This document shows, in pieces, positions 1 through 13,866 of a stretch of DNA of 13,866 nt. The stretch's first letter is position 1. Every line of letters starts with the position of its first letter. This DNA comes from a virus (Duplodnaviria > Heunggongvirae > Uroviricota > Caudoviricetes): the IMG/VR virus record IMGVR_UViG_2690316086_000003, positions 1 to 13,866 of that record; one strand, written 5' to 3'. The translations under genes and the position numbers were made by a program. The notes under the pieces were generated by a model, which saw nothing but the letters and a program-made list of their open reading frames with translations, ran no database searches and was not told the DNA's origin.

Positions 1-539
1 TTACATTTATGCTTAACCCACCCGATGGCATGCAGCTTAAGCTCCGGATACATGGCGTTAACTTCTGGCATTTTCATCAACGCTTCAACGATATGTCCGT
101 CGAATGTTGCCATGTCTTCCTGCAACAATTCCTGTGCGCTAATCACCATATCAACGGTGATGTTTTCACATGTGTCGAACTTAACCATGACAGCGTTCTG
201 TACTTCAGGGGCCAGCTTGTCAAAAGTGACGTTCATCGGATCGGATTCAGTCTCAACCGGGACAAAAGAAGCAGACTCCTCATCCCAGCGGTTTTCCTGC
301 ATATATTCAGCATCCCATGAATCGAGGGCAGGGCGGGGTATGCCAGGTTTATCCTCGCAGACAATAAATTTATAAGCGCAGTCCTGAGCAGCCGGATAAT
401 GTTCCAGGAACTGCCAGTGAAATTTTGCTCGAGCACGGCGTTCGTCGCCAGCTTCAATGGCTGTGGCTACAGCCACAGCGCCTTCTTCCCTTGTTGCCAG
501 TTCGTCAGGAATAGCGGCGCAAATAAAGACTTTACTCAT
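1..539 (-). CDS. hypothetical acidic phage early-region protein; 3' end lies beyond the window start
   Basis: Hand translation of the minus strand from ATG (complement of 537-539) gives MSKVFICAAIPDELATREEGAVAVATAIEAGDERRARAKF... and runs to position 1 with no stop. GAGG lies about 9 nt upstream of the ATG. Absent from the ORF track because it has no in-window stop. The plus-strand ORFs 9..320 and 25..375 are antisense to it. Confidence 0.6.
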   Translation of the reverse strand, partial: MSKVFICAAIPDELATREEGAVAVATAIEAGDERRARAKFHWQFLEHYPAAQDCAYKFIVCEDKPGIPRPALDSWDAEYMQENRWDEESASFVPVETESDPMNVTFDKLAPEVQNAVMVKFDTCENITVDMVISAQELLQEDMATFDGHIVEALMKMPEVNAMYPELKLHAIGWVKHKC

Positions 540-634
540 TTTGTTTTAACCTCATGACAGATTTAAGGATGAATAAATCCCTGCCATTGCTGGCATTTTT
601 AATCCGTTGGTATGGCGTTAATATGGCTGGAGGT

Positions 635-823
635 TTATCCAGCCGGCGTTTCGTTATTCAGGTACAGCAATACTTTTTTTAACGGGAGGCATTCACCGGG
701 GATTTTTTGTTCGTCCCTTACCTGAATGCAGGATGACTTACTGTCATAAATTCCGGTAATCACATTTTGTGGCTCACCCGTTATAAGAAAAACGGTCATC
801 ACCAGTGCAAACGCTGAAGTCAC
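635..823 (-). CDS. small hypothetical membrane protein (62 aa), translationally coupled to the upstream gene
   Basis: GTG start overlaps the upstream stop (GTGA). The N-terminal segment SAFALVMTVFLITG is hydrophobic, consistent with one transmembrane helix or signal anchor. No homology recognised. Confidence 0.35.
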   Translation of the reverse strand: MTSAFALVMTVFLITGEPQNVITGIYDSKSSCIQVRDEQKIPGECLPLKKVLLYLNNETPAG

Positions 824-1008
824 TGCTGTTCTCCGATAATACCAAGTTCAAGAAGGGCAATTCTGGAAAGTATGGAATTATCATTGAGAAGATAAGGTTC
901 ATATTTTCTCATCTTAATGGCATCTTCAGTAAACTCCCGGTTACTGAGCAGAACACCAATATCAAAACAACCTTCAGACGTATTAACGTTTGGTAATAAC
1001 GTTTCCAT
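820..1008 (-). CDS. small hypothetical protein (62 aa), first of two coupled small genes
   Basis: ATG at 1008-1006 (minus) is preceded by GAGGA with a 7-nt spacer. Product METLLPNVNTSEGCFDIGVLLSNREFTEDAIKMRKYEPYLLNDNSILSRIALLELGIIGEQQ. The longer 97-aa version in the ORF track starts at a GTG with no RBS. The stop TGA overlaps the GTG of the next gene. Confidence 0.4.
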   Translation of the reverse strand: METLLPNVNTSEGCFDIGVLLSNREFTEDAIKMRKYEPYLLNDNSILSRIALLELGIIGEQQ

Positions 1009-1575
1009 TATCGCGTCCTCAACAATGAATTTTGTGATGCAGTGCCTGGTGCCTCCAGGTGACGTTAACCAGTTAACAATTAACGCCGGATACAGAGAAT
1101 CCACCCATAACACTGTTTTTGGTTTTAACTGTTCCGCGTGCGCATAGCCGCATTCACCGCATCACAAAATTCACTTTAAAAAGGGCGGCAGAGCAGCCAC
1201 GGAGTAAAACTGATACCGCCAAACGTCACCAGAAAATTGATAACAGAGGGCGTTGCAGCGGGGTTGTCACTTAAGCGTATGGTCAACCTGACAACCCGGT
1301 GTCCTCAACGGGGAAGAAATAACCCCGCCATACTTACCGCCGCGCCATTTCGCGGAGTGCCACAACCGGAAGCGCACGGTCGACGAAAATTTAACGACAG
1401 GCTATCTATGAACCAGCAACCTCGCCGTGCGCTTTCGCGTTATGCTCTGACTTTTCAGAGAAATATCCTTTCAGTAAACTGTCAGTGCCGGATGTTCACC
1501 CGTGTCCGGCGCACGCACTCCACTTTACCCGTGGAGAACTCCTTAATTACCAACCTTAGCTTCGTTGGTTAGCTA

Positions 1576-1794
1576 TTAACGCGGGTATGTAATCATGCTG
1601 GCAATGCTTAATGCCGCTGCTTTTTCCAGATTGGTGATATCCTGCTCCAGAGCGGACAGATTTTCAGCCTGCTTAGCCCTGGCTTCATTGGCCCATTTCA
1701 GATCCTGCGCTGCATTAATTTTCTGGTGCATCCACTCATAAAGTTCATCATCGGTATAGTCTGGCGCGATGATGACGGGTTCTCGTTTCTGCAT
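1576..1794 (-). CDS. small hypothetical early-left operon protein (72 aa)
   Basis: ORF-track entry MQKREPVIIAPDYTDDELYEWMHQKINAAQDLKW...; ATG preceded by GAGGA with a 6-nt spacer. It lies in the same leftward operon as the two small genes upstream of it. Confidence 0.55.
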   Translation of the reverse strand: MQKREPVIIAPDYTDDELYEWMHQKINAAQDLKWANEARAKQAENLSALEQDITNLEKAAALSIASMITYPR

Positions 1795-1824
1795 ACTGAT
1801 TCCTCGCGGTGCTGTTTTCGCTTA

Positions 1825-1953
1825 TCAGCCGTTAGATTTTGCCGAGCTGGAAAGCGCCTGTTTAAATTCGCTGAAGCTGAGAGCTTCTTCGCCTTCGGCA
1901 AGGCCTTCGAAGTATTCTTCGTAAGCCTTTTCCATGATTGTGTCGAAATCCAT
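1825..1953 (-). CDS. small hypothetical protein (42 aa), Rac-type YdaF/YdaG-like position
   Basis: Hand translation gives MDFDTIMEKAYEEYFEGLAEGEEALSFSEFKQALSSSAKSNG. AGGTGG sits 5 nt upstream of the ATG, inside the 3' end of the preceding gene. Too short for the ORF track. Confidence 0.45.
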   Translation of the reverse strand: MDFDTIMEKAYEEYFEGLAEGEEALSFSEFKQALSSSAKSNG

Positions 1954-1954
1954 A

Positions 1955-2110
1955 TCACCCACCTGAATTTCTTTCCAGCCAGCGACGCGCTCCAGATTCG
2001 GTTTTAAACGTTTTGCTTTTGGTATACGTCATCGCGGTGAACGTACCGTCCTGGTTGGGGAACACGCCACATACCAGAGATTCGCTGTTGCCAAGATCGA
2101 TAGTATCCAT
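1955..2110 (-). CDS. small hypothetical protein (51 aa), Rac-type YdaF/YdaG-like position
   Basis: Internal ATG of track ORF 1955..2191 with GAGG 5 nt upstream. Product MDTIDLGNSESLVCGVFPNQDGTFTAMTYTKSKTFKTESGARRWLERNSGG. It is the first gene downstream of the leftward promoter next to the repressor gene. Confidence 0.5.
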   Translation of the reverse strand: MDTIDLGNSESLVCGVFPNQDGTFTAMTYTKSKTFKTESGARRWLERNSGG

Positions 2111-2291
2111 GCTGACCTCATTTCCCCTTAACGCCGGGGTAGCGGAACAAAAACCTGCTGCATAGTTATTAAAGTTGAACCCTGCCGTCATGTTCTTACG
2201 CCTCGGGCTGGCTACTTAACCCCTGACCACTGCCTGGTAACTCGAGGTATTGCCCTGTATTGTGTGGGACGGGATGGGTTGGTATGGGAAA

Positions 2292-2357
2292 ACTATAGGA
2301 AATGCCTAATTACTTGTCAATAGGCTATGCCTAATAATTTGGGCGCGACCTAATAGG
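2292..2357 (-). promoter_or_regulatory. pL-like leftward sigma70 promoter with repressor operator inverted repeats
   Basis: On the minus strand: -35 TTGACA (complement of 2315-2320), 17-nt spacer, -10 TATAGT (complement of 2292-2297). Inverted repeats TAGGA-aat-GCCTA (2296-2308), TAGGC-tat-GCCTA (2321-2333) and ACCTA-a-TAGGT (2347-2357) overlap or flank the promoter. Confidence 0.5.
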
Positions 2358-2428
2358 TGATGGTTTGTGGGAGAGGTAGTAGGAGTTAACTAACGGGAAC
2401 TAGGAATTTCCCGTCGGACCATATAAGT

Positions 2429-2905
2429 TTAAGTTCCTGTCTTGGTGATGTTCTGGCTTTTCCGTTTTGATTCTTGATTTTTCAGATAGTTAGCTACCTT
2501 CATTTCCATTGCGGCAATGTAGGCGCGAACGTCATGATCAACCCAACTAGGCTCCGTAGCATTTCCAGATAAGAGGAAAGCCACAATTGCTCTTTTTTCA
2601 TCAGAGGCGGCTTGATAAAGGCTGTTTATGTCTAAAAGTTCACTTTTTGTATCTGAAGTGGATGGGGTTGGTATGGGGTATTCGTTAAGCCCCCAATGCT
2701 CTGGACCAACCACATCAGAAAAGAAACGCCATAGTTCTGGAAGTTTGTCTTTACTTATCGAACCTTTCTTAATCCAGTCATGGATTGATGGTGGTTGGAC
2801 TTTGAAATGACGTGCGATTTCCGCCTTTGATTTGACGGCTCCTGATGCAATTTTTTTGTTAATGGCCTGCTCTATCGCTCGGCCTAAGTCTTTACCACTA
2901 AGCAT
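2429..2905 (-). CDS. racR: prophage repressor, RacR-like (CI-type HTH repressor)
   Basis: 158-aa ORF MLSGKDLGRAIEQAINKKIASGAVKSKAEIARHFKVQPPSIHDWIKKG... with an HTH near residues 24-47. AGGAGA RBS upstream. Divergent from a Cro-like gene. Length and sequence match my memory of Rac prophage RacR. Confidence 0.85.
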   Translation of the reverse strand: MLSGKDLGRAIEQAINKKIASGAVKSKAEIARHFKVQPPSIHDWIKKGSISKDKLPELWRFFSDVVGPEHWGLNEYPIPTPSTSDTKSELLDINSLYQAASDEKRAIVAFLLSGNATEPSWVDHDVRAYIAAMEMKVANYLKNQESKRKSQNITKTGT

Positions 2906-2958
2906 TGCTTAATAGTCTCCTATGCGCATCGCGTTAGGCAATCCCTACTCTCGATGTG

Positions 2959-3002
2959 TTAGGCATAGCCTATTGACAATTGTATTAGGCTAAGCCTAAT
3001 AT
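2959..3002 (+). promoter_or_regulatory. pR-like rightward sigma70 promoter with repressor operator inverted repeats
   Basis: -35 TTGACA (2973-2978), 18-nt spacer, -10 TAATAT (2997-3002). Operator inverted repeats TAGGC-ata-GCCTA (2960-2972) and ATTAGGCT-a-AGCCTAAT (2984-3000). The block 2959-2979 is the exact reverse complement of 2314-2334. Confidence 0.55.
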
Positions 3003-3029
3003 TGTTGCGTGTTTTTTGGAGTTCATTCG

Positions 3030-3353
3030 ATGAAAAAAGATAACTATTCATTCAAACGAGCTTGTGCTGTTGTCGGTGGGCAATCAGCAATGGCTAGGCT
3101 TTTAGGTGTATCTCCTCCAAGCGTAAATCAATGGATCAAAGGTGTACGTCAGTTGCCTGCTGAGAGATGTCCTGCGATTGAACGAGCAACAAAAGGTGGT
3201 GTCCTGTGTGAAGAACTTCGTCCTGATGTTGATTGGACATACTTACGACGCTCGTCATGTTATTCGCAGAATATGTCGATGAAGCAACCAAATGACGAAA
3301 ACGATCATACCCGAAGCATCAAGAGGCAAATGATTCATGAAAATCAAACATGA
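3030..3353 (+). CDS. ydaS: Cro-like HTH regulator, YdaS-like
   Basis: ATG at 3030 with GGAG 8 nt upstream; the track ORF begins at an upstream GTG. HTH segment GGQSAMARLLGVSPPSVNQWIKG. Divergent from the repressor gene, in the Rac-type order racR-ydaS-ydaT. Confidence 0.7.
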   Translation: MKKDNYSFKRACAVVGGQSAMARLLGVSPPSVNQWIKGVRQLPAERCPAIERATKGGVLCEELRPDVDWTYLRRSSCYSQNMSMKQPNDENDHTRSIKRQMIHENQT

Positions 3354-3762
3354 GCACATCCGCATGGCGATGAATGCCTGGGCATACCCTGATGGTGAGA
3401 AAGTTCCTGCAGCTGAAATAGCCCGGACTTATTTCGAACTGGGGATGACGTTCCCTGAACTGTACGACGACAGCCATCCGGAAGCCCTGGCCCGTAATAC
3501 ACAGAAAATTTTCCGTTGGCTGGATAAAGACACCCCTGATGCTGTTGAAAAAATTCAGGCTCTGTTACCGGCGATCGAAAAGGCAATGCCGCCTCTGCTG
3601 GTGGCCCGTATGCGCAGTCACAGCTCTGAGTATTACCGGGAGATTGTCGAACGGCGGGATCGGCTGGTGAAGGATGTCGACGATTTTGTTGCGTCAGCGG
3701 TTGTTTTGTATGACCAGATGAATCGCGGCGGCCCGGCAGGGAATGCTGTGGTGATGCACTAA
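3337..3762 (+). CDS. ydaT: YdaT-like protein (partner of YdaS in Rac-type prophages)
   Basis: ORF of about 140 aa, MKIKHEHIRMAMNAWAYPDGEKVPAAEIARTYFELGMTF..., overlapping the 3' end of the ydaS-like gene by 17 nt. Length and position match YdaT as I recall it. Confidence 0.7.
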   Translation: MKIKHEHIRMAMNAWAYPDGEKVPAAEIARTYFELGMTFPELYDDSHPEALARNTQKIFRWLDKDTPDAVEKIQALLPAIEKAMPPLLVARMRSHSSEYYREIVERRDRLVKDVDDFVASAVVLYDQMNRGGPAGNAVVMH

Positions 3763-3784
3763 AAGCACGGTGTTCGGGGGTTTT

Positions 3785-4747
3785 ATGAGCAGCAAGCTTC
3801 ATGGTCTTGTCTGGGAAGGGTGCGCCTTCACCGGCATGATCTTATCCAGGGTGGCGGTTATGGCCCGTCTTGCAGACTACAGCAATGACGAGGGTGTGTC
3901 ATGGCCTGCCATTGAAACTATCCGGCGTCAGATCGGTGCAAGAAGTGAATCCACAGTGAAATCGGCTATTGCAGAACTGGCGAAAGAGGGCTGGCTGACG
4001 AAGGAAGAGCGTAAGGTCGGTGGGCGTAATGTAAGCAATATCTATCGGCTTAATGTGGAAAAACTCGAAGCAGCAGCTGCGGCGGCGCGTGAGTCATATA
4101 AACCGAAAAGAAAAATTAGCCCGGCAAAAAATGACCAGTTAACAGTTGACCCGTCAAATATTGCCCCCTCAACGGTTGACCCGTCAAATTTTGATGGATC
4201 AACTGTTGATAAAAAACTGCCGATTAGGGGGGCGATGATTGACCCCGATCCGTCAGTATTAAAACCTGATCCGTCAGATAAAAGATCTTCTTGTCCGGAC
4301 GCTTCGCAACCGGACCCGCAGACGGCTGAACAGGATTTTTTAACCCGACACCCTGACGCGGTTGTGTTCAGTGCGAAAAAACGCCAGTGGGGAAGTCAGG
4401 AAGATTTGGTGTGCGCACAGTGGATCTGGGGACGAATCGTGAGTCTTTACGAGCAGGCGGCCAGCTATGATGGCGAGATCACTAGACCGAAAGAACCCAA
4501 CTGGACAGCATGGGCCAATGACGTTCGCACAATGCGGATGCTGGATGGCAGAACTCACAGACAAATTTGTGAAATGTTTGGGCGTCTCCAGCGGGATTCG
4601 TTCTGGGTAAAAAACATCATGAGTCCGGCAAAACTCCGGGAAAAATGGGATGAACTGGTTATCCGCCTGGGGCGTTCGCCTGCGCAGCGTTGCGTGAATC
4701 ACATTTCTGAACCGGACACTGAAATTCCGCCGGGCTTCAGGGGGTAA
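3785..4747 (+). CDS. phage replication initiator, lambda O-like / YdaU-like (N-terminal HTH domain, low-complexity linker, C-terminal domain)
   Basis: ATG at 3785 preceded by a GGGGG run; the track ORF starts at an upstream GTG at 3770. The N-terminal region (...SRVAVMARLADYSNDEGVSWPAIETIRRQIGARSESTVKSAIAELAKEGWLTKE...) looks like a replication-protein HTH. The central linker is encoded by the direct DNA repeats listed below. The position after the cro-like genes matches the replication module. Confidence 0.7.
   Translation: MSSKLHGLVWEGCAFTGMILSRVAVMARLADYSNDEGVSWPAIETIRRQIGARSESTVKSAIAELAKEGWLTKEERKVGGRNVSNIYRLNVEKLEAAAAAARESYKPKRKISPAKNDQLTVDPSNIAPSTVDPSNFDGSTVDKKLPIRGAMIDPDPSVLKPDPSDKRSSCPDASQPDPQTAEQDFLTRHPDAVVFSAKKRQWGSQEDLVCAQWIWGRIVSLYEQAASYDGEITRPKEPNWTAWANDVRTMRMLDGRTHRQICEMFGRLQRDSFWVKNIMSPAKLREKWDELVIRLGRSPAQRCVNHISEPDTEIPPGFRG
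4138..4277. repeat. iteron-like repeat cluster inside the replication-initiator gene (putative ori)
   Basis: Exact 15-bp direct repeat GTTGACCCGTCAAAT at 4145-4159 and 4175-4189, each containing the palindrome TTGAC-cc-GTCAA. Related palindrome TCAAC-t-GTTGA at 4199-4209. GATCCGTCAG repeated at 4247-4256 and 4268-4277. GTTAAC at 4138-4143. Confidence 0.45.
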
Positions 4748-4787
4748 GTGTTAATTTCTGGTCATGAGGTAACTTTCAGGAGGGCTT

Positions 4788-5210
4788 GTGGCAAAAGTTT
4801 TTACACAAGAAGAGCGGGAAAAAATTAAAGGGCAGGTTGTTGAACTCGTACGCCAGAGTGGGCGCGAGACGTTACGACAACTGGAAACTAAAACTGGGGC
4901 AACAAGATATCTGATGAGCGTTCTGGCCAGAGAGCTGGTTGCCAGTGGCGATGTATACAATTCTGGCTACGGGTTATTCCCGTCTGAACAGGCTCGTAAA
5001 GACTGGCAAAATGCCCGCAAAAAACTCTCAAGGGCAAAGCTGAAGAAACCATCTGCGGTTGATCCGGACCTTATCTGGTCATTACCAGATGGCGAAATAC
5101 GCCGCTACGACAGGCGTCTGAACATAATCTGTCTCGAGTGCCGGAAGAGCGAAGTTATGCAGCGCGTACTGGCGTTTTATCAGGGGAATTTTGAGGAGGT
5201 GGTGCGGTGA
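4788..5210 (+). CDS. hypothetical protein (140 aa), replication-module position
   Basis: GTG start with AGGAGG 5 nt upstream. Product MAKVFTQEEREKIKGQVVELVRQSGRETLRQLETKTGATRYL.... Stop overlaps the next start (GTGA). Confidence 0.6.
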   Translation: MAKVFTQEEREKIKGQVVELVRQSGRETLRQLETKTGATRYLMSVLARELVASGDVYNSGYGLFPSEQARKDWQNARKKLSRAKLKKPSAVDPDLIWSLPDGEIRRYDRRLNIICLECRKSEVMQRVLAFYQGNFEEVVR

Positions 5211-5461
5211 GTGAATCAAAATGCCAGGTTAATGGCAACAAGATAGAACCATGTGCAGCACTGGCAAAGTCCCTTGAGCATGATGCTGAATACACGATGC
5301 GAAAAGGTCTGCTGATATACAAAATCTGGAATGAGAGTTTAACTCGCGGTCCTGATTTTGTGATGTTGCGTTCCGGTGAATTTTCTAAATTACCAGTTCG
5401 GGTTTCATTTTGTCCGTTCTGTGGTGAAAGTCTGAAAACGTGGGAGAACAGAAATGAATGA
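5207..5461 (+). CDS. hypothetical small protein (84 aa) with Cys pairs C6/C16 and C69-P-F-C72 (possible zinc ribbon)
   Basis: GTG start overlaps the upstream stop, with GAGGAGG 7 nt upstream. The four Cys are arranged C-x9-C ... C-x2-C. Its 3' end overlaps the next start (ATGAATGA). Confidence 0.55.
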   Translation: MSESKCQVNGNKIEPCAALAKSLEHDAEYTMRKGLLIYKIWNESLTRGPDFVMLRSGEFSKLPVRVSFCPFCGESLKTWENRNE

Positions 5462-5765
5462 AATTAAAGAAATACCAGTAGTACGTGATGAATATGGCTG
5501 CTGGACGCATCCTGAATATGAAAAATTCTGTGACGGTCGGGAATATATTTCAACGGAAGAGTTTAACGCCTGGATGGAGGAAAATAATCTTCAATACGTC
5601 CTCTGCTTCAGAGATGAAGGATGTGCTGACCTTGATGCGTGTGATGCTGATATTTCTGCATGGGAACCGGAACGACCAGAGGGCAATGGATGGTTTATTG
5701 GTTCAATACATGACACCGAAGATGGCCCGGTTTGTGTATGGCTGAGAAATAAGGCCGAAGCATAA
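5454..5765 (+). CDS. hypothetical Cys-rich acidic protein (103 aa)
   Basis: ATG overlaps the preceding stop. Product MNEIKEIPVVRDEYGCWTHPEYEKFCDGREYISTEEF.... It is the last gene before the AT-rich island. Confidence 0.6.
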   Translation: MNEIKEIPVVRDEYGCWTHPEYEKFCDGREYISTEEFNAWMEENNLQYVLCFRDEGCADLDACDADISAWEPERPEGNGWFIGSIHDTEDGPVCVWLRNKAEA

Positions 5766-6070
5766 AGGCTATAAACCGACTAACAACTAAATACTGAAGA
5801 TTTAAATCAGAAACGATTTTTATTAAATCCTTAACCGGAGGGATTCTGCACCCTCAGAACATCAGGAGGCCGTCTGAAAGGGCGGAACAGATAATGCTTA
5901 CGTTGAAACATTTTATCGACATACCAACATGGTTAGCCGTCATTGCTTTTGTTAAAATACACATCCACTTTTCTGTGCAATGTTTAACCACTGGTCATAT
6001 CAAATGGCATTCATGCGAACCATGATATAGAATCATGGCTTGAGAGAGTCGATGAAAGCGCAACTATGGT

Positions 6071-6649
6071 ATGAGAGACATTGATGTAAGAAAGGCTGTG
6101 CATGCCAAGATTCTGAGAGATCATCATAAAGATCCTGACACCCTAATCATTGATGAGTTTACGATGAATCTAGGGGCTAGCAGAGCTGATATAGCAGTGA
6201 TCAATGGGCTTATACATGGTTATGAGTTGAAGAGCAAGAGTGATAACTTGCTCAGATTACCAGCGCAGGTGCAACATTACTCATCAGTGATGGATAAAGT
6301 AACTTTGGTTGTCTCTGATTGCCATCTTTATGATGCTTTAAGCATAGTTCCATCATGGTGGGGGATAAAGCAAGTTACGCAAGGTGCACGGCAAGGTATC
6401 CATTTAAAAACAATTCGAACTAGCAAGTTGAATCCACAAGTGGACAAACTTTCCTTAACAATGCTTCTTTGGAAAGATGAATTGCTTTCCCTATTAAGTG
6501 ATGTAGGGGAGCTACAGAATTTGAAAAATAAACCTAAACGCGTCTTATGGTCAAAACTCGCCAATAGTATGGATGTTGGCGAGCTTCGTGAAGCTGTTCG
6601 AGTTAAACTTAAAGCCCGTAAAGAGTGGCGAGTTGCTCAACAACCTTAG
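6071..6649 (+). CDS. hypothetical protein with PD-(D/E)xK-like nuclease motif; recalled as 'sce7726-family-like'
   Basis: 192-aa ORF with AT-rich codon usage. Motif arrangement E29 (IIDEF), D40 (RADIAVI), E52-L-K54 (GYELKSK), which is the classic order for the restriction-endonuclease-like fold. Family assignment is from memory only. Confidence 0.7.
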   Translation: MRDIDVRKAVHAKILRDHHKDPDTLIIDEFTMNLGASRADIAVINGLIHGYELKSKSDNLLRLPAQVQHYSSVMDKVTLVVSDCHLYDALSIVPSWWGIKQVTQGARQGIHLKTIRTSKLNPQVDKLSLTMLLWKDELLSLLSDVGELQNLKNKPKRVLWSKLANSMDVGELREAVRVKLKARKEWRVAQQP

Positions 6650-7706
6650 TTATGTGATGGTTTTGCCCAATCCTACGCCATACCTCTGGGCTACCAAATT
6701 TATAGTTACCAGAGGGATTGGCTTTGTAGGCTTGATACTCGTTTGCATAATATTCTATGTCTCTATCTCCCGCACAGAATGTAGGCCCTGAATATTCTCG
6801 ATGAGCAAGAATATCCTCACTATGTTTACCATATTGTTCATAACCAAAGCGATTAGCTACTCTTCCTCGAAATACCCAAAAGTCATTATCTCCAGAGTAT
6901 CTGACGCTGGCAGATACGCTAGGGAATCGCGTCGAAAGCCTATTAAAGTCGGGGTGCTGTACTCCATAATCACTATAAATCACATTTCTGGCAAGTTCTT
7001 TTCTATTCATTAAACTCTGCCATAAAATCCACTCGATTCGAGGTTGAGAATATAGACCAACAGAAATATCACTGAGATCTGTAGGAAATGAACCCCCAGA
7101 AAGAATCACTTTTCTGTATTCATTGAGGTGCGCCAGATTGTTTATCAATCCCATTGCCAAAGTATATAGTTCGCCGGAATTAATTTTATCCTCGGTTAAC
7201 TCATCTCTTAAGTCAATAATTATATCAATATTTGATAAAGGAATTCCCAGATGATTAATGTAATGCGTTATTAATTGTGGGTTAACCAGATCTAACGTGG
7301 TTAATCTCAAGCATATTTCATTCTGCATTAATTCATCAATCGCTCTTTTATAGTTAGATGGGCGAGTTGGTGAACTGACAGGAATAACTCTTATCCCCAT
7401 ATCTCTAACTTGATTAACCGCATTTATTATAGGGTAATGATCTTCAGGAGAAATAAAATGCTCTTCAATTAATAATCCATCAATATAAACACCTTGCATA
7501 TCTGAGCAAGATTTTGAGACTTTCTTTCCGAACTCTATAAGAGTCTCGTTATAACTCTTTAAGGCAATACCTGAATCAGGGTCAATTGGCACTGGTTCAA
7601 TTTCGAGTAATGGCAAAATTTTTGATTTCTTTTCAATGGATAGCTGCGATAAAGCTGATAACTCAGAACGTTTCGCTTTCAGAATAGGAATATATGAAAT
7701 TGTCAT
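6609..7706 (-). CDS. hypothetical protein, recalled as 'beta protein / sce7725-family-like' (function unknown)
   Basis: 365-aa ORF, MTISYIPILKAKRSELSALSQLS..., AT-rich, with AAGG about 8 nt upstream of the ATG. Convergent with the 192-aa gene and overlapping its 3' end by 41 bp. The N-terminal Y-x-P-I-L-K-x-K motif matches my recollection of this family. Confidence 0.8.
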   Translation of the reverse strand: MTISYIPILKAKRSELSALSQLSIEKKSKILPLLEIEPVPIDPDSGIALKSYNETLIEFGKKVSKSCSDMQGVYIDGLLIEEHFISPEDHYPIINAVNQVRDMGIRVIPVSSPTRPSNYKRAIDELMQNEICLRLTTLDLVNPQLITHYINHLGIPLSNIDIIIDLRDELTEDKINSGELYTLAMGLINNLAHLNEYRKVILSGGSFPTDLSDISVGLYSQPRIEWILWQSLMNRKELARNVIYSDYGVQHPDFNRLSTRFPSVSASVRYSGDNDFWVFRGRVANRFGYEQYGKHSEDILAHREYSGPTFCAGDRDIEYYANEYQAYKANPSGNYKFGSPEVWRRIGQNHHITKVVEQLATLYGL

Positions 7707-8263
7707 GTTAATACCTTATACAGAATCAATTAACAATTAATGGTTCTTCGGACATTGAAATTTATATCGCAAAAATTGGCAAACTCTCCTCGACTACTCA
7801 CTTGTGGGTATCCTGGCGTAAAAGGAATGACTTGGCAATACCCGGTGTGATCATAAGTCATTGAAAATGATCATTTTTATCAGTCTTTCTTCCATGATGA
7901 ATGCTAATGCCATTTGATTTGTTGAGGTGAAAACTGTTAAAAATCAAAACGATGTAATTGAAATGAACGTTCGGTAGCATTCACGCTTTAAATGTTTCTT
8001 TTGTGCTGATTGGATGAATTTGGGTCACTTATGATGAGAGATGTTGCAGGAAAAGAAGTTGGCATTGATCTATTGGATAGTTAGAATTGCTGCGGGTGCT
8101 TGAGGCTATCTGCCTCAGGTATGAACACCAAAAGGCAGATAGAGAAAAGCCCCAGTTAACATTACGCGTCCGGCAAGACGCTTAACATTAATCTGAGGCC
8201 AATTTCATGCTTTGCACATGTAGGTTAGCCTCTTACGTGCCGAAAGGCAAGGAGAAGCAGGCT

Positions 8264-8419
8264 ATGAAGCAGCAAAAGGCGATGTTAATCGCCCTGATCG
8301 TCATCTGTTTAACCGTCATAGTGACGGCACTGGTAACGAGGAAAGACCTCTGCGAGGTACGAATCCGAACCGGCCAGACGGAGGTCGCTGTCTTCACAGC
8401 TTACGAACCTGAGGAGTAA
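8264..8419 (+). CDS. hokD: Hok/Gef-family small membrane toxin (51 aa)
   Basis: Product MKQQKAMLIALIVICLTVIVTALVTRKDLCEVRIRTGQTEVAVFTAYEPEE, with one transmembrane helix and the LCEVR signature. GGAG lies 9 nt upstream. The track ORF at 8207 is an in-frame upstream extension. The sequence matches HokD/RelF as I recall it. Confidence 0.8.
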   Translation: MKQQKAMLIALIVICLTVIVTALVTRKDLCEVRIRTGQTEVAVFTAYEPEE

Positions 8420-8487
8420 GAGACCAGGCGAGGGAGAAATCCCTCGCCACCTCTGATGAGTCAGGCATCCTCAACGCACCCGCACTT

Positions 8488-8515
8488 AACCCGCTTCGGC
8501 GGGTTTTGTTTTTTC
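8488..8515 (+). terminator. rho-independent terminator downstream of hok
   Basis: Stem AACCCGC (8488-8494), loop TTCG, stem GCGGGTT (8499-8505), then a T-rich run TTTTGTTTTTT. The hairpin GGCGAGGGA-gaaa-TCCCTCGCC at 8427-8448 lies just upstream. Confidence 0.7.
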
Positions 8516-8586
8516 CTGGCATTCTGGTTTACAATTCGCACGTCAGCCTGAACACCTGACACCTGCTGCGCCAGCAGAGAAAACAG

Positions 8587-8859
8587 ATGGTGCACAAAAC
8601 CAAATTTCACAATTCTGATACCGACCTTGCCATCCGGCATGGGCGGCGTTCACACGCATTTAAAACCGACTGGTACCAACACCCATCATGTACTGAAGAA
8701 CAGGCCGAATGGCTAATTCATAACTACCGCAGACGCGGATACGAGATTAAGAAAGCCCTCAGCCTCGATTATCGTCACTGGATAATCTATGTCAGGCTCC
8801 CTTATTCCGAACGCTCACCGCGCCCATCCCGCACATACCAGCAACGGATCTGGAGGTAA
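8587..8859 (+). CDS. hypothetical protein (90 aa), Qin-type Rem-like position
   Basis: ATG at 8587. Its stop TAA (8857-8859) lies inside the RBS-to-start region of the DUF968 gene. It sits between hok and the DUF968 gene, like rem in the Qin prophage as I recall it. No confident homology. Confidence 0.5.
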   Translation: MVHKTKFHNSDTDLAIRHGRRSHAFKTDWYQHPSCTEEQAEWLIHNYRRRGYEIKKALSLDYRHWIIYVRLPYSERSPRPSRTYQQRIWR

Positions 8860-8860
8860 C

Positions 8861-9910
8861 GTGCGGATATTACTTCGACCTGTTCTGGTACCGGAACTCG
8901 GGCTGGTGGTCCTTAGGCCGGGCCGTGAATCCATGCAAGTATTTCATAACCCTCGAGTGCTGGTGGAGCCTGAACCGAAAAGCATGCGCGGTCTGCCGTC
9001 CGGAGTCGTCCCTGCCGTTCGCCAGCCGCTGGCGGAGGATAAATCATTTCTGCCATTTTTCAGCGATGAGCGGGTGATTCGTGCTGCTGGCGGCGCTGGG
9101 GCACTGTCTGACTGGCTGTTGCGTCATGTCAAATCCTGCCAGTGGCCTCATGGTGACTATCATCACAGTGAAATCGTCATACATCGTTACGGTACCGGCG
9201 CGATGGTGTTGTGCTGGCACTGCGACAACCAGTTGCGTGACCAGACATCCGAATCACTCGGGCAACTTGCTCATCAAAACCTGTCAGCATGGATGATTGA
9301 CGTCATACGCCATGCAATGAATGGCACGCAGGAGCGGGAATTGTCGCTGGCTGAATTATCCTGGTGGGCGGTCTGCAATCAGGTGGCGGACGCGCTTCCG
9401 GAGGCAGTATTACGTCGTTCTCTGGGGTTACGTGCGGAAAAAATCCGCTCCTTGTACCGCGAAAGCGACATCGTACCGGGAGAGCAGACCGCCATCAGCA
9501 TACTGAAACAGCGCACAAAAAATCTTGCGCCGCTGCCTCACGCCCACCAGCAACAGAACCCACCACAGGAAAAGACGGTGGTCAGCATTGCCGTTGATCC
9601 TGAGTCTCCGGAATCTTTCATGAAACGACCTAAACGTCGCCGCTGGGTTAACGAGAAATACACACGCTGGGTGAAGACTCAGCCGTGTGCGTGTTGTGGT
9701 AAGCCAGCCGACGATCCCCATCACCTGATTGGTCATGGTCAGGGCGGAATGGGGACAAAATCTCACGATATTTTCACGCTACCGCTGTGTCGGGAGCATC
9801 ACAACGAGCTTCATGCGGATCCGCTGGCGTTCGAAGAAAAGCATGGTTCTCAGGTTGATTTAATTTTTCGTTTTCTTGATCACGCCTTTGCAACTGGCGT
9901 GCTTGGGTAA
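8861..9910 (+). CDS. DUF968-type prophage protein (YdfU-like) with C-terminal Cys/His cluster
   Basis: GTG at 8861 with GGAGG 4 nt upstream; the track ORF 8789..9910 extends further upstream in the same frame. C-terminus ...QPCACCGKPADDPHHLIGHGQGGMGTKSHDIFTLPLCREHHNELH is an HNH-like or zinc-binding motif. Confidence 0.7.
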   Translation: MRILLRPVLVPELGLVVLRPGRESMQVFHNPRVLVEPEPKSMRGLPSGVVPAVRQPLAEDKSFLPFFSDERVIRAAGGAGALSDWLLRHVKSCQWPHGDYHHSEIVIHRYGTGAMVLCWHCDNQLRDQTSESLGQLAHQNLSAWMIDVIRHAMNGTQERELSLAELSWWAVCNQVADALPEAVLRRSLGLRAEKIRSLYRESDIVPGEQTAISILKQRTKNLAPLPHAHQQQNPPQEKTVVSIAVDPESPESFMKRPKRRRWVNEKYTRWVKTQPCACCGKPADDPHHLIGHGQGGMGTKSHDIFTLPLCREHHNELHADPLAFEEKHGSQVDLIFRFLDHAFATGVLG

Positions 9911-9922
9911 AAGAGGTGACTG

Positions 9923-10282
9923 ATGCTCATAGATTTGGTTTTACCTTACCCGCCGACGGTGAACACTTACTGGCGACGCCGTGGCAGCACATATTTTATC
10001 TCGGAGGAGGGAAAGCGTTATCGCCGGGCTGTGGCGCTTATTGTTCGCCAGCAGCGGCTGAAATTAAGCCTGTCCGGAAGGCTGGCGATAAAGATTATTG
10101 CAGAGCCACCGGATAAGCGCCGTCGTGATCTGGACAATATCCTGAAAGCACCGCTGGATGCGCTGACGCATGCCGGACTTCTCATAGACGACGAGCAGTT
10201 TGATGAAATCAATATTGTGCGCGGTCAGCTCGTTTCTGGTGGGCGGCTGGGCGTGAAGATTTACAAAATTGAAAGTGAGTGA
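9923..10282 (+). CDS. rusA: RusA-type Holliday junction resolvase
   Basis: 119-aa ORF MLIDLVLPYPPTVNTYWRRRG...PPDKRRRDLDNILKAPLDALTHAGLLIDDEQ.... The RRRDLDN and DALT motifs resemble RusA. AAGAGG RBS with a 6-nt spacer. Confidence 0.8.
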   Translation: MLIDLVLPYPPTVNTYWRRRGSTYFISEEGKRYRRAVALIVRQQRLKLSLSGRLAIKIIAEPPDKRRRDLDNILKAPLDALTHAGLLIDDEQFDEINIVRGQLVSGGRLGVKIYKIESE

Positions 10283-10290
10283 GCATAAAT

Positions 10291-10845
10291 ATGATATACC
10301 CGGAAATTACAGGCAAAAGCGGTGAGCATTTACGCCTGAAAACGCTGGAAAGTGTCTGGATCCAGGGGAAACTGCGTATGTGGGGGCGTTGGTCGTATAT
10401 TGGCGACGGTAAGACGGGAAATATGTTCAACCAATTACTGACCTCTAAAAAGCTGACAAAAACGGCAATTAACGAGGCGCTCCGGAGGATGAAAAAAGCG
10501 GGTCTGGACAAACCTGAACTTGAGGCTTTTTTGCGGGATATGATCAACGGCAATCAAAAAAGCTGGCTGGCACATTGTACCGATTCAGAGGCGTTAATAA
10601 TCGACAGGGTTATTGGTGAAGTACTGGCAGGTTATCCCGGGCTGCTCAATGTTCTGAGTCAGCGTTATGTGGGGCGGGGGATGACTAAGCGCAAAATGGC
10701 TGAACTGCTGAATGATGCACATCCGGAATGGAGTTTAAGAACCTGTGAAAGACGCATTGAGCATTGGCTAAAGGTGGCAGAATTTATTTTGTACAAACCA
10801 ATGGTTATGGCTTTTGGTATAGAGAAAAAAGTTATTGCTTTTTGA
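10291..10845 (+). CDS. putative late-gene antiterminator Q-like protein
   Basis: ATG at 10291; the alternative GTG at 10279 overlaps the rusA stop. Position after rusA and just before a short terminated leader. Loose resemblance to small Q/QuuD-type proteins (an MWGRWSY-type segment and basic C-terminal helices), from memory. Confidence 0.5.
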   Translation: MIYPEITGKSGEHLRLKTLESVWIQGKLRMWGRWSYIGDGKTGNMFNQLLTSKKLTKTAINEALRRMKKAGLDKPELEAFLRDMINGNQKSWLAHCTDSEALIIDRVIGEVLAGYPGLLNVLSQRYVGRGMTKRKMAELLNDAHPEWSLRTCERRIEHWLKVAEFILYKPMVMAFGIEKKVIAF

Positions 10846-10922
10846 CGTAAAAACTGCTTCAATTCCGGTAAGCTTCGCAAAGCTGTACCGCGAGGCGAAT
10901 AGCAGACATGGACATTTGAAAG

Positions 10923-10947
10923 AGCCCGCTTTTTGCGGGTTTTTTTA
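10923..10947 (+). terminator. rho-independent terminator (tR'-like) downstream of the Q-like gene
   Basis: AGCCCGC-ttttt-GCGGGT hairpin followed by a run of 7 T. It lies about 80 nt after the Q-like stop, as expected for a late-promoter leader. Confidence 0.65.
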
Positions 10948-11068
10948 TGACTGAAAAACGGCACGGGGCGTTAAATGCGCTGGTGGTTGCGAATACCGGT
11001 CTTTCTGCTTACTGGCTTTTTGGACAAGAGTTATTGGTATGTCACGTTAACCAAAAGGGAAAAAAGAC

Positions 11069-11266
11069 ATGCTAAAACAGCAGGATATGACAGAAACCGC
11101 CAGAGTGGTGTTTAATGAATTAAGCGTTACCGACCCGGCGACAGTCGGGGAGATTGCGCAGAATACTTACCTTTCACGCGAACGCTGCCAGTTAATACTG
11201 ACCCAGCTTGTTATGGCGGGTCTGGCAGACTATCAGTTCGGTTGTTACAGACGCCTTCCGCAGTGA
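11069..11266 (+). CDS. small winged-helix/HTH-like protein (65 aa)
   Basis: AAGGGA upstream of the ATG. The segment TVGEIAQNTYLSRERCQLILTQLVMAGLAD looks like an HTH. The stop sits in the loop of a terminator hairpin. Confidence 0.5.
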   Translation: MLKQQDMTETARVVFNELSVTDPATVGEIAQNTYLSRERCQLILTQLVMAGLADYQFGCYRRLPQ

Positions 11267-11276
11267 AGGCTTTTTT
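11253..11276 (+). terminator. rho-independent terminator
   Basis: GCCTTC (11253-11258), loop CGCAGT, GAAGGC (11265-11270), followed by TTTTTTATTT. Confidence 0.6.
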
Positions 11277-11416
11277 ATTTGTGGTAAATGGGCGGCTGGT
11301 GGGTGTTAGGGGCACCTACCAGCCATCTGCTCATGCGTTGGGTTCACAAGCAAACCTCAGGCCCACTGCTTTGCGCAAAAGCAGAATGAGCCTATCAGAG
11401 ACAGGCTTAATGATCC

Positions 11417-12493
11417 ATGCTTAATACTGTAAAAATATCCAGTTGTGAGTTAATCAACGCTGATTGCCTGGAATTTATCCAGACCTTACCGGAAAACTCT
11501 GTCGATCTGATAGTCACAGACCCGCCATACTTTAAAGTGAAGCCCGAGGGCTGGGATAACCAGTGGAAGGGCGACGATGATTACCTGAAGTGGCTGGACC
11601 AGTGTCTGGCGCAGTTCTGGCGGGTGCTGAAACCTGCCGGAAGTCTTTACCTGTTCTGTGGCCATCGCCTGGCATCTGACATTGAAATCATGATGCGTGA
11701 ACGCTTCAATGTGCTGAACCATATTATCTGGGCGAAGCCGTCCGGACGCTGGAACGGGTGCAACAAGGAAAGCCTGCGGGCGTATTTTCCGGCCACAGAA
11801 CGCATTCTGTTCGCGGAACATTATCAGGGGCCGTATCGTCCGAAAGATGATGGCGATGAGGCGAAGGGCAGGGCACTGAAACAGCATGTGATGGCCCCGC
11901 TGATTTCTTACTTTCGTGATGCGCGTGCTGCTCTTGGGATAACGGCAAAACAGATTGCAGATGCCACAGGAAAGAAAAACATGGTGTCGCACTGGTTCAG
12001 TGCCAGTCAGTGGCAGCTACCGAACGAAAGCGATTATCTGAAATTACAGTCGCTGTTTGCCCGGGTGGCAGAAGAGAAACATCAGCGGGGAGAACTGGAA
12101 AAGTCCCATTACCAACTGGTCAGCACATACAGTGAGCTGAACCGGCAGTACATGGAACTGCTGAGTGAATATAAAAATTTGCGGCGGTATTTCGGTGTGA
12201 CGGTGCAGGTGCCGTACACCGATGTGTGGACGCATAAACCGGTGCAGTACTATCCAGGGAAACATCCGTGCGAAAAACCGGCAGAAATGCTGCGGCAGAT
12301 AATCTGCGCGAGCAGTCGTCCGGGTGACCTGGTGGCGGATTTTTTCATGGGTTCTGGCTCAACCATAAAAGCAGCTATGGCGCTCGGGCGTCGTGCAACT
12401 GGTGTTGAACTGGAGGCAGAACGTTTTGCGCAGACCGTTAAGGAGATTAGTCACATCCTTACATGCTCAATTGATGACGGGAAGGATGGATAA
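11417..12493 (+). CDS. orphan DNA N6-adenine methyltransferase (beta-class, DPPY motif) with a central inserted domain
   Basis: 358-aa ORF. N-terminal motif IV ...VDLIVTDPPYF..., C-terminal motif I ...DLVADFFMGSGSTIKAAMALGRRATGVELE.... An insert of about 150 aa lies between them. No adjacent restriction endonuclease gene is recognisable. Confidence 0.85.
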   Translation: MLNTVKISSCELINADCLEFIQTLPENSVDLIVTDPPYFKVKPEGWDNQWKGDDDYLKWLDQCLAQFWRVLKPAGSLYLFCGHRLASDIEIMMRERFNVLNHIIWAKPSGRWNGCNKESLRAYFPATERILFAEHYQGPYRPKDDGDEAKGRALKQHVMAPLISYFRDARAALGITAKQIADATGKKNMVSHWFSASQWQLPNESDYLKLQSLFARVAEEKHQRGELEKSHYQLVSTYSELNRQYMELLSEYKNLRRYFGVTVQVPYTDVWTHKPVQYYPGKHPCEKPAEMLRQIICASSRPGDLVADFFMGSGSTIKAAMALGRRATGVELEAERFAQTVKEISHILTCSIDDGKDG

Positions 12494-13715
12494 AGATATG
12501 GTCAGTTCAGGCTGTGAAGCAAGTAGACAGATAAGGCTGCAATAAAAACTGACAATAGTAAAATAGCTTTTTCCCAGGTAGTCATGAATACGATCTCTTA
12601 AAGCGCCCGCTGATACCAGCGGGCAATACATACTGGCATTAATGTTAAGTTCAGGGATAATTCATCGTATTTTGTGGTACGACGCTATCAATATTAATAA
12701 ACAGTATTTTTCATGTAAAATTTCTGTTTTTTTGATCTGATTCTCGTTTCCTGGGTTATGATGTTGTTGTGAACCATGCTGTTGAATGATAATGTTCGGG
12801 TATAAAATTGTTGCTGATATGTAGCGCAGTGAGCAGGTGGTATTTCTGTTGCTGAGTGTACGGATACAGTGCTTCCCTCCCTCAGCGGGGGGGCAGGTGT
12901 GCTGTGGTTTTAGAGACACCGGAAACGAGAATGATGCGGGTTTGCTGGTGCCGGGATAGAGTCGCCGGAGGTCATGACATAGAGCAAAAAAGGAATGTGC
13001 ATGCAAATACACACCTCTTCGGAGAGCTCTTCTTTATATGGATGAGCCTCAAGGTCAATAGTTTATCTGTTATGTATTCATATGTTGTTACTTATATAAT
13101 CCATACGGGCATATCATCAGTACACACATACTATTATGGCATTTTATTTTTGTTTTAACTGAATTCCCGGGGCACTCTTTTTGATTTCTGATAAGGAACC
13201 AGAATTTTCTGTTAAATGGTGTCACGTTGTAAATGGTTAATGGAAGCAGCTTATTATCCATAATCACACCTGAGTTAACAGGTGTGAGAATACTTCCGGG
13301 TGGCAGGAACACATCTGACTGATACCAGATTATCAACTTTATTTTACACCATACAGTTGAAAACGTTATTCCGCTTGATGGGCATATCACTGTGTCAATA
13401 ACTATCCATTCCATCTTTTAACCTTCTCGGTACACATTGCTTTCGATTGTTTTGCTAAAAATCATAGTCAATAAATCAGTGTAACTCATTGAAAAAGATC
13501 GTCTTCTTTGTCTTCCTGGGGTTTTCTTTTCTAATTTTGTATCACTTTGGTTCAAGTTGTTTCATTTTTTTGTAATACAAATTAGCAGGATGAGCGGGAA
13601 TATAAAAAAATCGGATGTTTTTGTAATGGATATTATTTTTTTGTAAAATAATGTATTTTTATTTAAATCTCTATCAGAAAAGAATTTATTGTTCCTTTAT
13701 ATGGTGGAAAAGGTC

Positions 13716-13866
13716 ATGGTATTTAAACACTACGATGTGGTCAGGGCGGCGTCGCCGTCAGATCTTGCGGAAAAGCTGACACAAAAACTGAAGGAGGGGT
13801 GGCAGCCATTTGGCAGCCCGGTGGCCATCACGCCTTATACTCTGATGCAGGCCATTGCGGCGGAAG
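13716..13866 (+). CDS. hypothetical phage protein, 5' part (continues beyond the window end)
   Basis: ATG at 13716 with GGTGG 8 nt upstream, after a very AT-rich promoter-like region. Translation MVFKHYDVVRAASPSDLAEKLTQKLKEGWQPFGSPVAITPYTLMQAIAAE... has no stop before the window end. Confidence 0.5.
   Translation, partial: MVFKHYDVVRAASPSDLAEKLTQKLKEGWQPFGSPVAITPYTLMQAIAAE

Follow-up and report, generated by a model that had tools for sequence, protein, structure and literature searches.

The closest described relatives of the locus analyzed here are the gop-beta-cII locus of phage P4 and the PD-lambda-2 defence system. As has been known since 1990, gop and beta of P4 occupy one strand and cII lies on the other strand, convergent with beta (Ghisotti et al. 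1990). The P4 locus confers defence against lambda and P1 (Rousset et al. 2022, PMC9122126), and expression of the phage orf184 alone activates gop-beta-cII toxicity (bioRxiv 10.1101/2023.04.06.535777); phage protection, with toxicity neutralised by beta, is known only for the gop-beta-cII loci of P4 and ECOR59 (PMC9122126; bioRxiv 10.1101/2023.04.06.535777). PD-lambda-2 was published as three co-directional genes, with no convergent nuclease gene listed (PMC9519451); overexpression of its B component causes toxicity that A neutralises, and C, a homologue of beta, is required for defence (Vassallo et al. 2022, PMC9519451). Here we analyze two convergent genes of the sce7726/Phage_P4_cII and Beta_protein families that overlap by 41 nucleotides (nt) at their 3' ends in a viral DNA stretch of 13,866 nt (hereafter the window; positions 1 to 13,866 of IMG/VR record IMGVR_UViG_2690316086_000003, Caudoviricetes), where they form a stand-alone two-gene cargo island in a Rac-like prophage. 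Genes of these two families are always arranged tail to tail, in one fixed register in about 96% of the loci, and the overlap is ancient and truly codes for both proteins.

The window pair shares with P4 gop-beta-cII both partner families and their convergent arrangement, and in both cases the genes are non-essential cargo of a mobile element. It differs in having no gop toxin gene (a tblastn search of the window with P4 gop returned chance matches only, E >= 0.33), in the nuclease-like protein, which is about 28% identical over the core to the longer P4 cII (264 amino acids, aa), and in the junction itself, with 27 nt and an annotated terminator between beta and cII in P4 versus an overlap in the window. 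The window beta protein is nearer to the PD-lambda-2 C models than to the P4 beta model: in PADLOC it matches PD-Lambda-2_C at 1.8e-41 and the beta component of gop-beta-cII weakly, at 2e-4. In other respects the island differs from PD-lambda-2, the window containing no homologue of either the HigB-like A gene or the Xre-M78 peptidase B gene. No third gene was found in the island, with no open reading frame (ORF) longer than 43 aa in positions 7707-8200 upstream of beta.

The plus-strand protein matches the NCBIfam profile NF033832 (sce7726_fam) over positions 1-183 of 184 (1.7e-56; 191.1 bits, with a cut-off of 70) and the PADLOC 'cll' model of gop-beta-cII (2.4e-28); a Pfam profile search with this protein gave no match, and its sce7726 homologues carry a precomputed assignment to PF26915 (Phage_P4_cII). 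Clustering at 50% identity leaves 5358 representatives of this large family. The protein shows the restriction endonuclease-like alpha/beta core fold of the PD-(D/E)xK superfamily, and residues D40, E52 and K54, which are invariant in an alignment of 18 sequences with identity down to 46%, were assigned to the catalytic strands by reading the sequence, without structure superposition. We accordingly describe it as PD-(D/E)xK nuclease-like and as a predicted nuclease, and the term 'effector', which the first-pass annotation used, is reasonable since the product is nuclease-like.

The minus-strand protein matches Pfam PF14350 (Beta_protein) over profile positions 1-341 of 342 (3.8e-52; 178.3 bits, with a threshold of 27). 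Its predicted structure is a triosephosphate isomerase (TIM) barrel (predicted local distance difference test score 91.6, predicted template modelling score 0.92) with generic structural neighbours only, and it looks like an enzyme because many polar residues are invariant in the family alignment. A sequence search of solved structures returned nothing significant for either protein. Membership of beta in the NCBIfam family sce7725 was considered and rejected: beta proteins from five diverse loci gave no match and the window protein only E = 0.1, at the N-terminus. In the deposited annotation of phage Rac-SA53 the same two genes appear as 'CII phage-like protein' and 'beta'.

The first-pass annotation had described a convergent 41-nt overlap with stop codons at 6647-6649 and 6609-6611, and this description is exact. 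Both stop codons are included in the 41 nt of the window ORF listing, and from the coordinates codon positions pair as 1:1, 2:3 and 3:2 ('phase 1'). Positions 5400-8600 match, at 100% identity, a Rac-like prophage of the E. coli O103 ML775 chromosome, for which the Prokaryotic Genome Annotation Pipeline of RefSeq gives the same two coding sequences with the same ends; 83 records match at 99% or more. At least 80% of this 3.2-kb stretch is found in 91 of 5426 complete E. coli genomes, so that about 1.7% of them, mainly of Shiga-toxin-associated serogroups such as O103 and O111, carry the pair. Given that 192 and 365 aa are the usual sizes among homologues in dozens of genera, and that the stop positions of both genes coincide in homologues from many genera, neither stop can be attributed to a frameshift or sequencing error, which the first-pass annotation had named as a possible refutation. 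Both ORFs are full-length matches to curated families, hence the overlap is real and not an artefact of annotation.

For the comparison, we collected a first set of 80 loci from species-representative genomes with an sce7726 alignment (Enterobacterales, Vibrionaceae, Alpha- and Betaproteobacteria, Xanthomonadales, Myxococcota, Acidobacteriota, Firmicutes, Chloroflexota, Patescibacteria, Gastranaerophilales, Armatimonadota, Gemmatimonadota and KSB1), together with two actinophages, P4 and the window. The survey also covered 80 viral contigs, three P4-like satellites and further searches that started from beta homologues, from a second E. coli sce7726 type and from PD-lambda-2 B homologues; profiles refined iteratively on these loci served to identify the ORFs. 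The viral contigs include many E. coli prophages that hardly differ from each other, and the diverse set comprises 74 distinct junction sequences.

The two genes are convergent in all 172 loci that contain both (81/81, 84/84 and 7/7; more than 12 phyla plus the viral contigs), and none is co-directional. The layout had been flagged as a departure from the norm for two-gene systems, together with a suggestion that the orientation of homologous pairs be checked; that check shows the opposite, convergence being the invariant layout of the family, already annotated as such for P4 beta and cII. The 3' ends overlap in 165 of the 172 loci (about 96%), by 11-167 nt, and every overlap length leaves a remainder of 2 when divided by 3. 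The remaining seven loci have gaps: 26-27 nt in the P4 clade, 39 nt in Xenorhabdus and 14 nt in Photobacterium, the latter present in both the genome and the viral sets. The overlap is thus far beyond chance, and the one in the window is the local copy of an ancient, family-wide architecture. At three further loci the nuclease gene occurs without beta, and two more loci are cut by contig ends. The solo sce7726-like genes belong to Myxococcus phage Mx4, where the gene lies beside a RusA-like gene, Bacillus phage vB_BceM_WH1 and Xenorhabdus koppenhoeferi (L005 2992-3561, L006 2935-3528 and L017 4001-4567). Identical copies of the pair were also seen under unrelated taxon labels, namely a Bordetella metagenome-assembled genome, Bradyrhizobium and Afipia (L027-L032, L036), and Nocardiopsis versus Stenotrophomonas (L075). 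This suggests contamination or very recent transfer, either of which means that the locus counts exceed the number of independent events.

What is fixed across these loci is a short core in which conserved residues of both proteins are encoded by the same nucleotides. On the nuclease side, the C-terminal motif L180-K181-x-R183-x-x-W186-R187 falls within the overlap, and L-K-x-R-x-x-W-R is invariant in the family; on the other side, the overlap encodes part of a long C-terminal helix of beta (residues 340-362) with the conserved pattern W-x-x-[VI]-x-x-N-H-H-x-x-x-V-x-Q-L-[AS]-x-L. The window has TGG CGA (W186 R187, 6626-6631) facing CTC GCC ACT (L359 A360 T361). Of 81 diverse loci, 71 keep a constant offset of +4 nt between the Trp codon and the codon for the Leu of the beta 'QL'. 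Of the 62 unique sequences, 59 use TGG for this Trp, while the Arg codon is CGA in 38 or AGA in 17 (together 55), with A as its third base in 61; the wobble base of Arg187 is A because the same base is the second position of the codon for the hydrophobic residue of beta (Leu359). Conversely, whether residue 360 of beta is Ala or Ser is set by the first base of the opposite Arg codon, C or A. CGA, used for Arg187 at 6629-6631, is a rare codon in E. coli.

Synonymous sites tell the same story in a clade of 20 enterobacterial sequences, where third-position entropy at synonymous codons drops only within the overlap: it is 0.35 and 0.00 for residues 181-192 of the sce7726 protein, against a gene mean of 1.13, and 0.54 for residues 361-365 of beta, against 1.18. 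Constraint at synonymous sites outside the overlap, which would indicate a conserved RNA element, was not seen in this clade. Beyond the 11-nt core the tails vary in length, and the overlap is longer where the GC content is higher (rho 0.40, p = 2e-4); a range of 11-167 nt that rises with GC content is what neutral tails predict. About 10 loci have escaped from the shared core by insertions of 24-40 nt between the conserved cores and are still convergent. Lineages with such insertions include L020-L023, L035, L019 and L018, of which L020-L023 keep an 11-nt overlap of the tails.

Convergent overlaps make up about 7% of prokaryotic gene overlaps, and of the small number of long ones that look genuine, most are conserved among very close species only (PMC2478687). 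Like the convergent overlaps described previously (Rogozin et al. 2002; Palleja et al. 2008, PMC2478687), the one in the window is truly tail to tail and thus independent of start annotation, and its phase 1 is the commonest phase reported once 4-nt overlaps are set aside. Unlike most of the genuine long overlaps in the latter survey, the present one keeps a single register over more than 12 phyla and involves invariant residues of both proteins.

The same pair is also found next to genes of PD-lambda-2. In 14 of the 80 loci from genomes, beta has homologues of PD-lambda-2 A and B on its upstream side, and all four loci obtained from look-ups of three PD-lambda-2 B homologues contain a convergent sce7726 gene that overlaps beta by 155-158 nt. 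In one of these loci (L175), the sce7726 gene was skipped by the JGI gene caller. The 120 proteins listed by the search for PD-lambda-2 B homologues include no E. coli entry. The ECOR42 PD-lambda-2 clone reached 396 nt past C, so a complete sce7726 gene could not fit into it. Pairs of HigB and Xre-peptidase genes without beta also occur (plasmid matches). Two experimentally supported anti-phage systems, P4 gop-beta-cII and PD-lambda-2-type loci, have this pair as their conserved core, in a modular arrangement where beta and the convergent nuclease-like gene are joined to a variable upstream part: gop, HigB with the Xre-peptidase, or none, the last being the case in the window and at a second E. 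coli prophage site between Rz and Nu1.

It had been claimed that no terminator can sit between the two stop codons, so that each transcript must run antisense into the other gene. The first part of this argument stands in that, if both genes are transcribed, the coding overlap alone amounts to at least 41 nt of complementarity between the mRNAs; the second is too strict, because a terminator can sit inside the coding sequence of the partner gene. A consensus scan of positions 5700-8300 found no canonical intrinsic terminator near either stop. A candidate 3' end of the beta mRNA is a stem-loop that begins 23 nt past the beta stop, within the sce7726 coding sequence (Table 1), in a region whose fold (6480-6620, minus strand) has z = -3.1. 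Across the 74 distinct loci, the 90 nt past the beta stop have a more stable fold than shuffled sequence (mean z -1.21, with 30% of the loci below -2), versus a mean z of about -0.1 and 5-7% below -2 for antisense gene-interior controls (p = 5.5e-6 for the difference), and the 90 nt past the sce7726 stop fold in the same way as the controls. Very strong GC-rich hairpins were observed at the equivalent place in L041, L045, L056, L062, L068, L069 and L085. A crude best-hairpin scan, which missed the 13-bp stem of the window, found no consistent U-tract after the beta stop across the loci. Terminator-like sites past the sce7726 stop, at 4 of 81 loci versus 7% of control windows, represent no excess; past the beta stop they are commoner (20 of 81 loci, many of them redundant).

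Promoter-like consensus sites in the window are weak matches and no more numerous than in shuffled sequence, including the one listed for the nuclease gene in Table 1. That antisense control or transcriptional interference would serve to silence the genes is at most plausible. In Bacillus subtilis, the type I toxin-antitoxin systems txpA/RatA and bsrG/SR4 produce convergent RNAs that overlap at their 3' ends, and duplex formation leads to degradation of the toxin mRNA. The window pair would resemble them in having two convergent transcription units with complementary 3' ends and differs in that both transcripts encode conserved proteins. Pairing of cis-antisense RNAs needs no sequence conservation, so that comparative data cannot reveal its use.

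Why, then, does the overlap persist? The reading that we prefer, at odds slightly better than even (a probability of about 0.55), is that shared codons lock an ancestral overlap in place, antisense effects being a by-product and the phage trigger acting at the protein level. The invariant Trp-Arg of the nuclease and the conserved Leu-Ala/Ser of the beta helix lie on the same nucleotides, and given that these nucleotides serve both conserved motifs, the genes could be separated only by duplication of the segment, an event that would have occurred on few occasions; at the loci with 24-40-nt insertions, the expected duplication has left no clear trace. The variable tails past the core would drift with the availability of stop codons. 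Each gene needs its own outward promoter, and expression of both necessarily entails convergent transcription and RNA duplexes, with antisense consequences that would be a by-product, at most a minor tuning of basal levels. The trigger is placed at the protein level, as seems most likely, because orf184 alone activates gop-beta-cII and PD-lambda-2 C is required for defence. The P4 clade lacks the overlap and P4 gop-beta-cII still defends, hence the overlap is not required for function. The window island most likely serves the prophage as a module of defence or abortive infection, in which, by analogy, the nuclease-like protein would be the effector and beta its partner or guard.

Several observations weigh against this explanation by shared codons. 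It does not account for the fact that the lineages in which the overlap is broken all remain convergent, with the genes within 40 nt of each other, which leaves room for selection on convergent transcription. The excess of structure past the beta stop hints at a functional 3' end within the partner gene. Many of the surveyed loci are related by horizontal transfer, so the counts are of non-independent events. Finally, the roles of effector and guard are assigned by analogy only, and the known toxin of P4 is gop rather than cII.

Among the alternatives, the one that survives best, and which we regard as possible albeit rather unlikely, is a selected regulatory switch. Here the overlap would be kept since convergent transcription controls the nuclease, through polymerase collisions or cleavage of the duplex by RNase III, such that transcription of beta represses the nuclease gene or the reverse; the switch would be tipped by infection or by read-through from the prophage lytic operon. 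The best support for it is that all 172 loci are convergent, and within 40 nt even where shared coding is broken, although any gene pair that moves as a unit normally keeps its orientation. The lack of a terminator-like excess past the sce7726 stop and the excess of RNA structure past the beta stop, within the nuclease coding sequence, are consistent with such a switch, but the P4 clade has an annotated terminator between the genes and P4 gop-beta-cII defends nonetheless. The prophage contexts in E. coli also fit. A second type of the pair (L089 3134-4763), with a nuclease about 54% identical and an overlap of 59 nt, occupies a different lambdoid prophage cargo site, flanked by the genes for Rz (lysis) and Nu1 (terminase), and in both contexts the nuclease gene runs along the flanking phage operon and beta opposite to it. 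Against control at the level of transcription, triggering of gop-beta-cII by one phage protein points to protein-level sensing, and the length of the overlap is highly variable and follows GC content.

A broader version, which we regard as somewhat less likely still, is a mutual antisense or interference switch in which two protein-coding mRNAs would regulate each other, maintained by selection in more than 12 phyla and common to gop-beta-cII, PD-lambda-2-type loci and the stand-alone pair, with the nuclease as an overlooked fourth component of the PD-lambda-2-type systems. It is improbable that the overlap is kept for linkage or compactness, that is, that a shared 3' end makes the genes inseparable and the module small, so that effector and guard are transferred together. 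The pair is indeed always found together in prophage cargo sites, satellites and genomic islands with differing accessory genes, and solo nuclease genes are rare (about three loci), yet eleven shared nucleotides hardly increase linkage beyond adjacency, the escape loci stay adjacent without overlap, and by sequence data this alternative is indistinguishable from locking by shared codons. An artefact, in which a sequencing error or frameshift has moved one stop or one ORF is no gene and there is no true overlap, has a negligible probability and was rejected, as both ORFs are full-length members of curated families, sequence and annotation are identical in an independent complete genome, 83 records match at 99% or more, and stops are equally placed in relatives from many genera.

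With respect to the surroundings of the pair, the inference that the island was horizontally acquired is borne out by its composition (33-42% GC versus about 50% in the flanks) and by the different cargo that other Rac-like phages bear at this position: homology to these phages breaks after approximately 5822-5900 and resumes at approximately 8082. The island is bordered by the replication genes of the Rac-like E. coli prophage on one side and by its hok/sok locus on the other, and an Rfam scan of the island found no known RNA. The adjoining hok/sok type I toxin-antitoxin locus (8094-8419) consists of an Rfam sok match at 8094-8269 and the hokD coding sequence at 8264-8419; two toxin-type modules with antisense geometry are thus neighbours, but hok/sok is a classical type I system with an overlap of the 5' ends. 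Elsewhere in the window, the DicF RNA (1183-1234, minus strand), the racR repressor gene (2429-2905, minus strand) and dicB, ydfC and ydaT-like genes confirm a Rac/Qin-type immunity region, and a prophage DNA methyltransferase gene (11417-12493) and iraM (13088-13414, minus strand) lie downstream. In E. coli O111 strains (L007 3442-4655), IS1203 is inserted upstream of beta, beside hok, and in phage Rac-SA53 (L008 1016-1781) IS1 lies upstream of the nuclease gene at a distance of about 166 nt; the pair is intact in each case.

Table 1. Coordinates of the gene pair, its shared segment and associated features (window positions unless a survey locus is given).
Feature	Position	Strand	Details
sce7726-family / Phage_P4_cII gene	6071..6649	+	192 aa; stop TAG 6647-6649
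Beta_protein family gene	6609..7706	-	365 aa; stop 6609-6611
Dual-coding 41-nt stretch	6609..6649	.	sce7726 residues 180-192 and stop; beta residues 353-365 and stop
Conserved shared-coding core, 11 nt	6621..6631	.	W186-R187 opposite beta L359-A360-T361-L362 (6621-6632)
Stem-loop, candidate 3' end or terminator of the beta mRNA	6554..6586	-	13-bp stem, 11-nt loop, then UUUUGACC (UUUU)
Promoter-like site ATGGCA-18-TAGAAT	6004..6033	+	38 nt upstream of the sce7726 start; consensus match only
Low-GC cargo island carrying the pair, approximate limits	5900..8081	.	GC profile and homology breaks
Fourth gene (sce7726/Phage_P4_cII) of PD-lambda-2-type operons	L174 5694-6266; L175 3750-4322; L176 5756-6328; L177 5761-6354	-	

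Both gene families, the part that related loci play in defence and the convergence of beta and cII in P4 were already known. Our literature search found no paper on the conserved overlap in a fixed register, nor on the core shared by gop-beta-cII and PD-lambda-2-type loci or its stand-alone two-gene form, and the literature on sce7726, PF14350 and Rac-SA53 contained nothing about the overlap. Convergent overlaps that are conserved beyond close species are rare (PMC2478687), and here invariant residues of two unrelated proteins share nucleotides across phyla, which makes this overlap a clean natural model of how shared coding constrains evolution. The comparison ties gop-beta-cII, PD-lambda-2 and the stand-alone pair to one core, a TIM-barrel protein and a convergent nuclease-like protein. 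It also points to a likely gap in annotation, the nuclease gene being easily missed and absent from the three-gene definition of PD-lambda-2, and the layout allows an experimental test of whether convergent transcription regulates a defence module.

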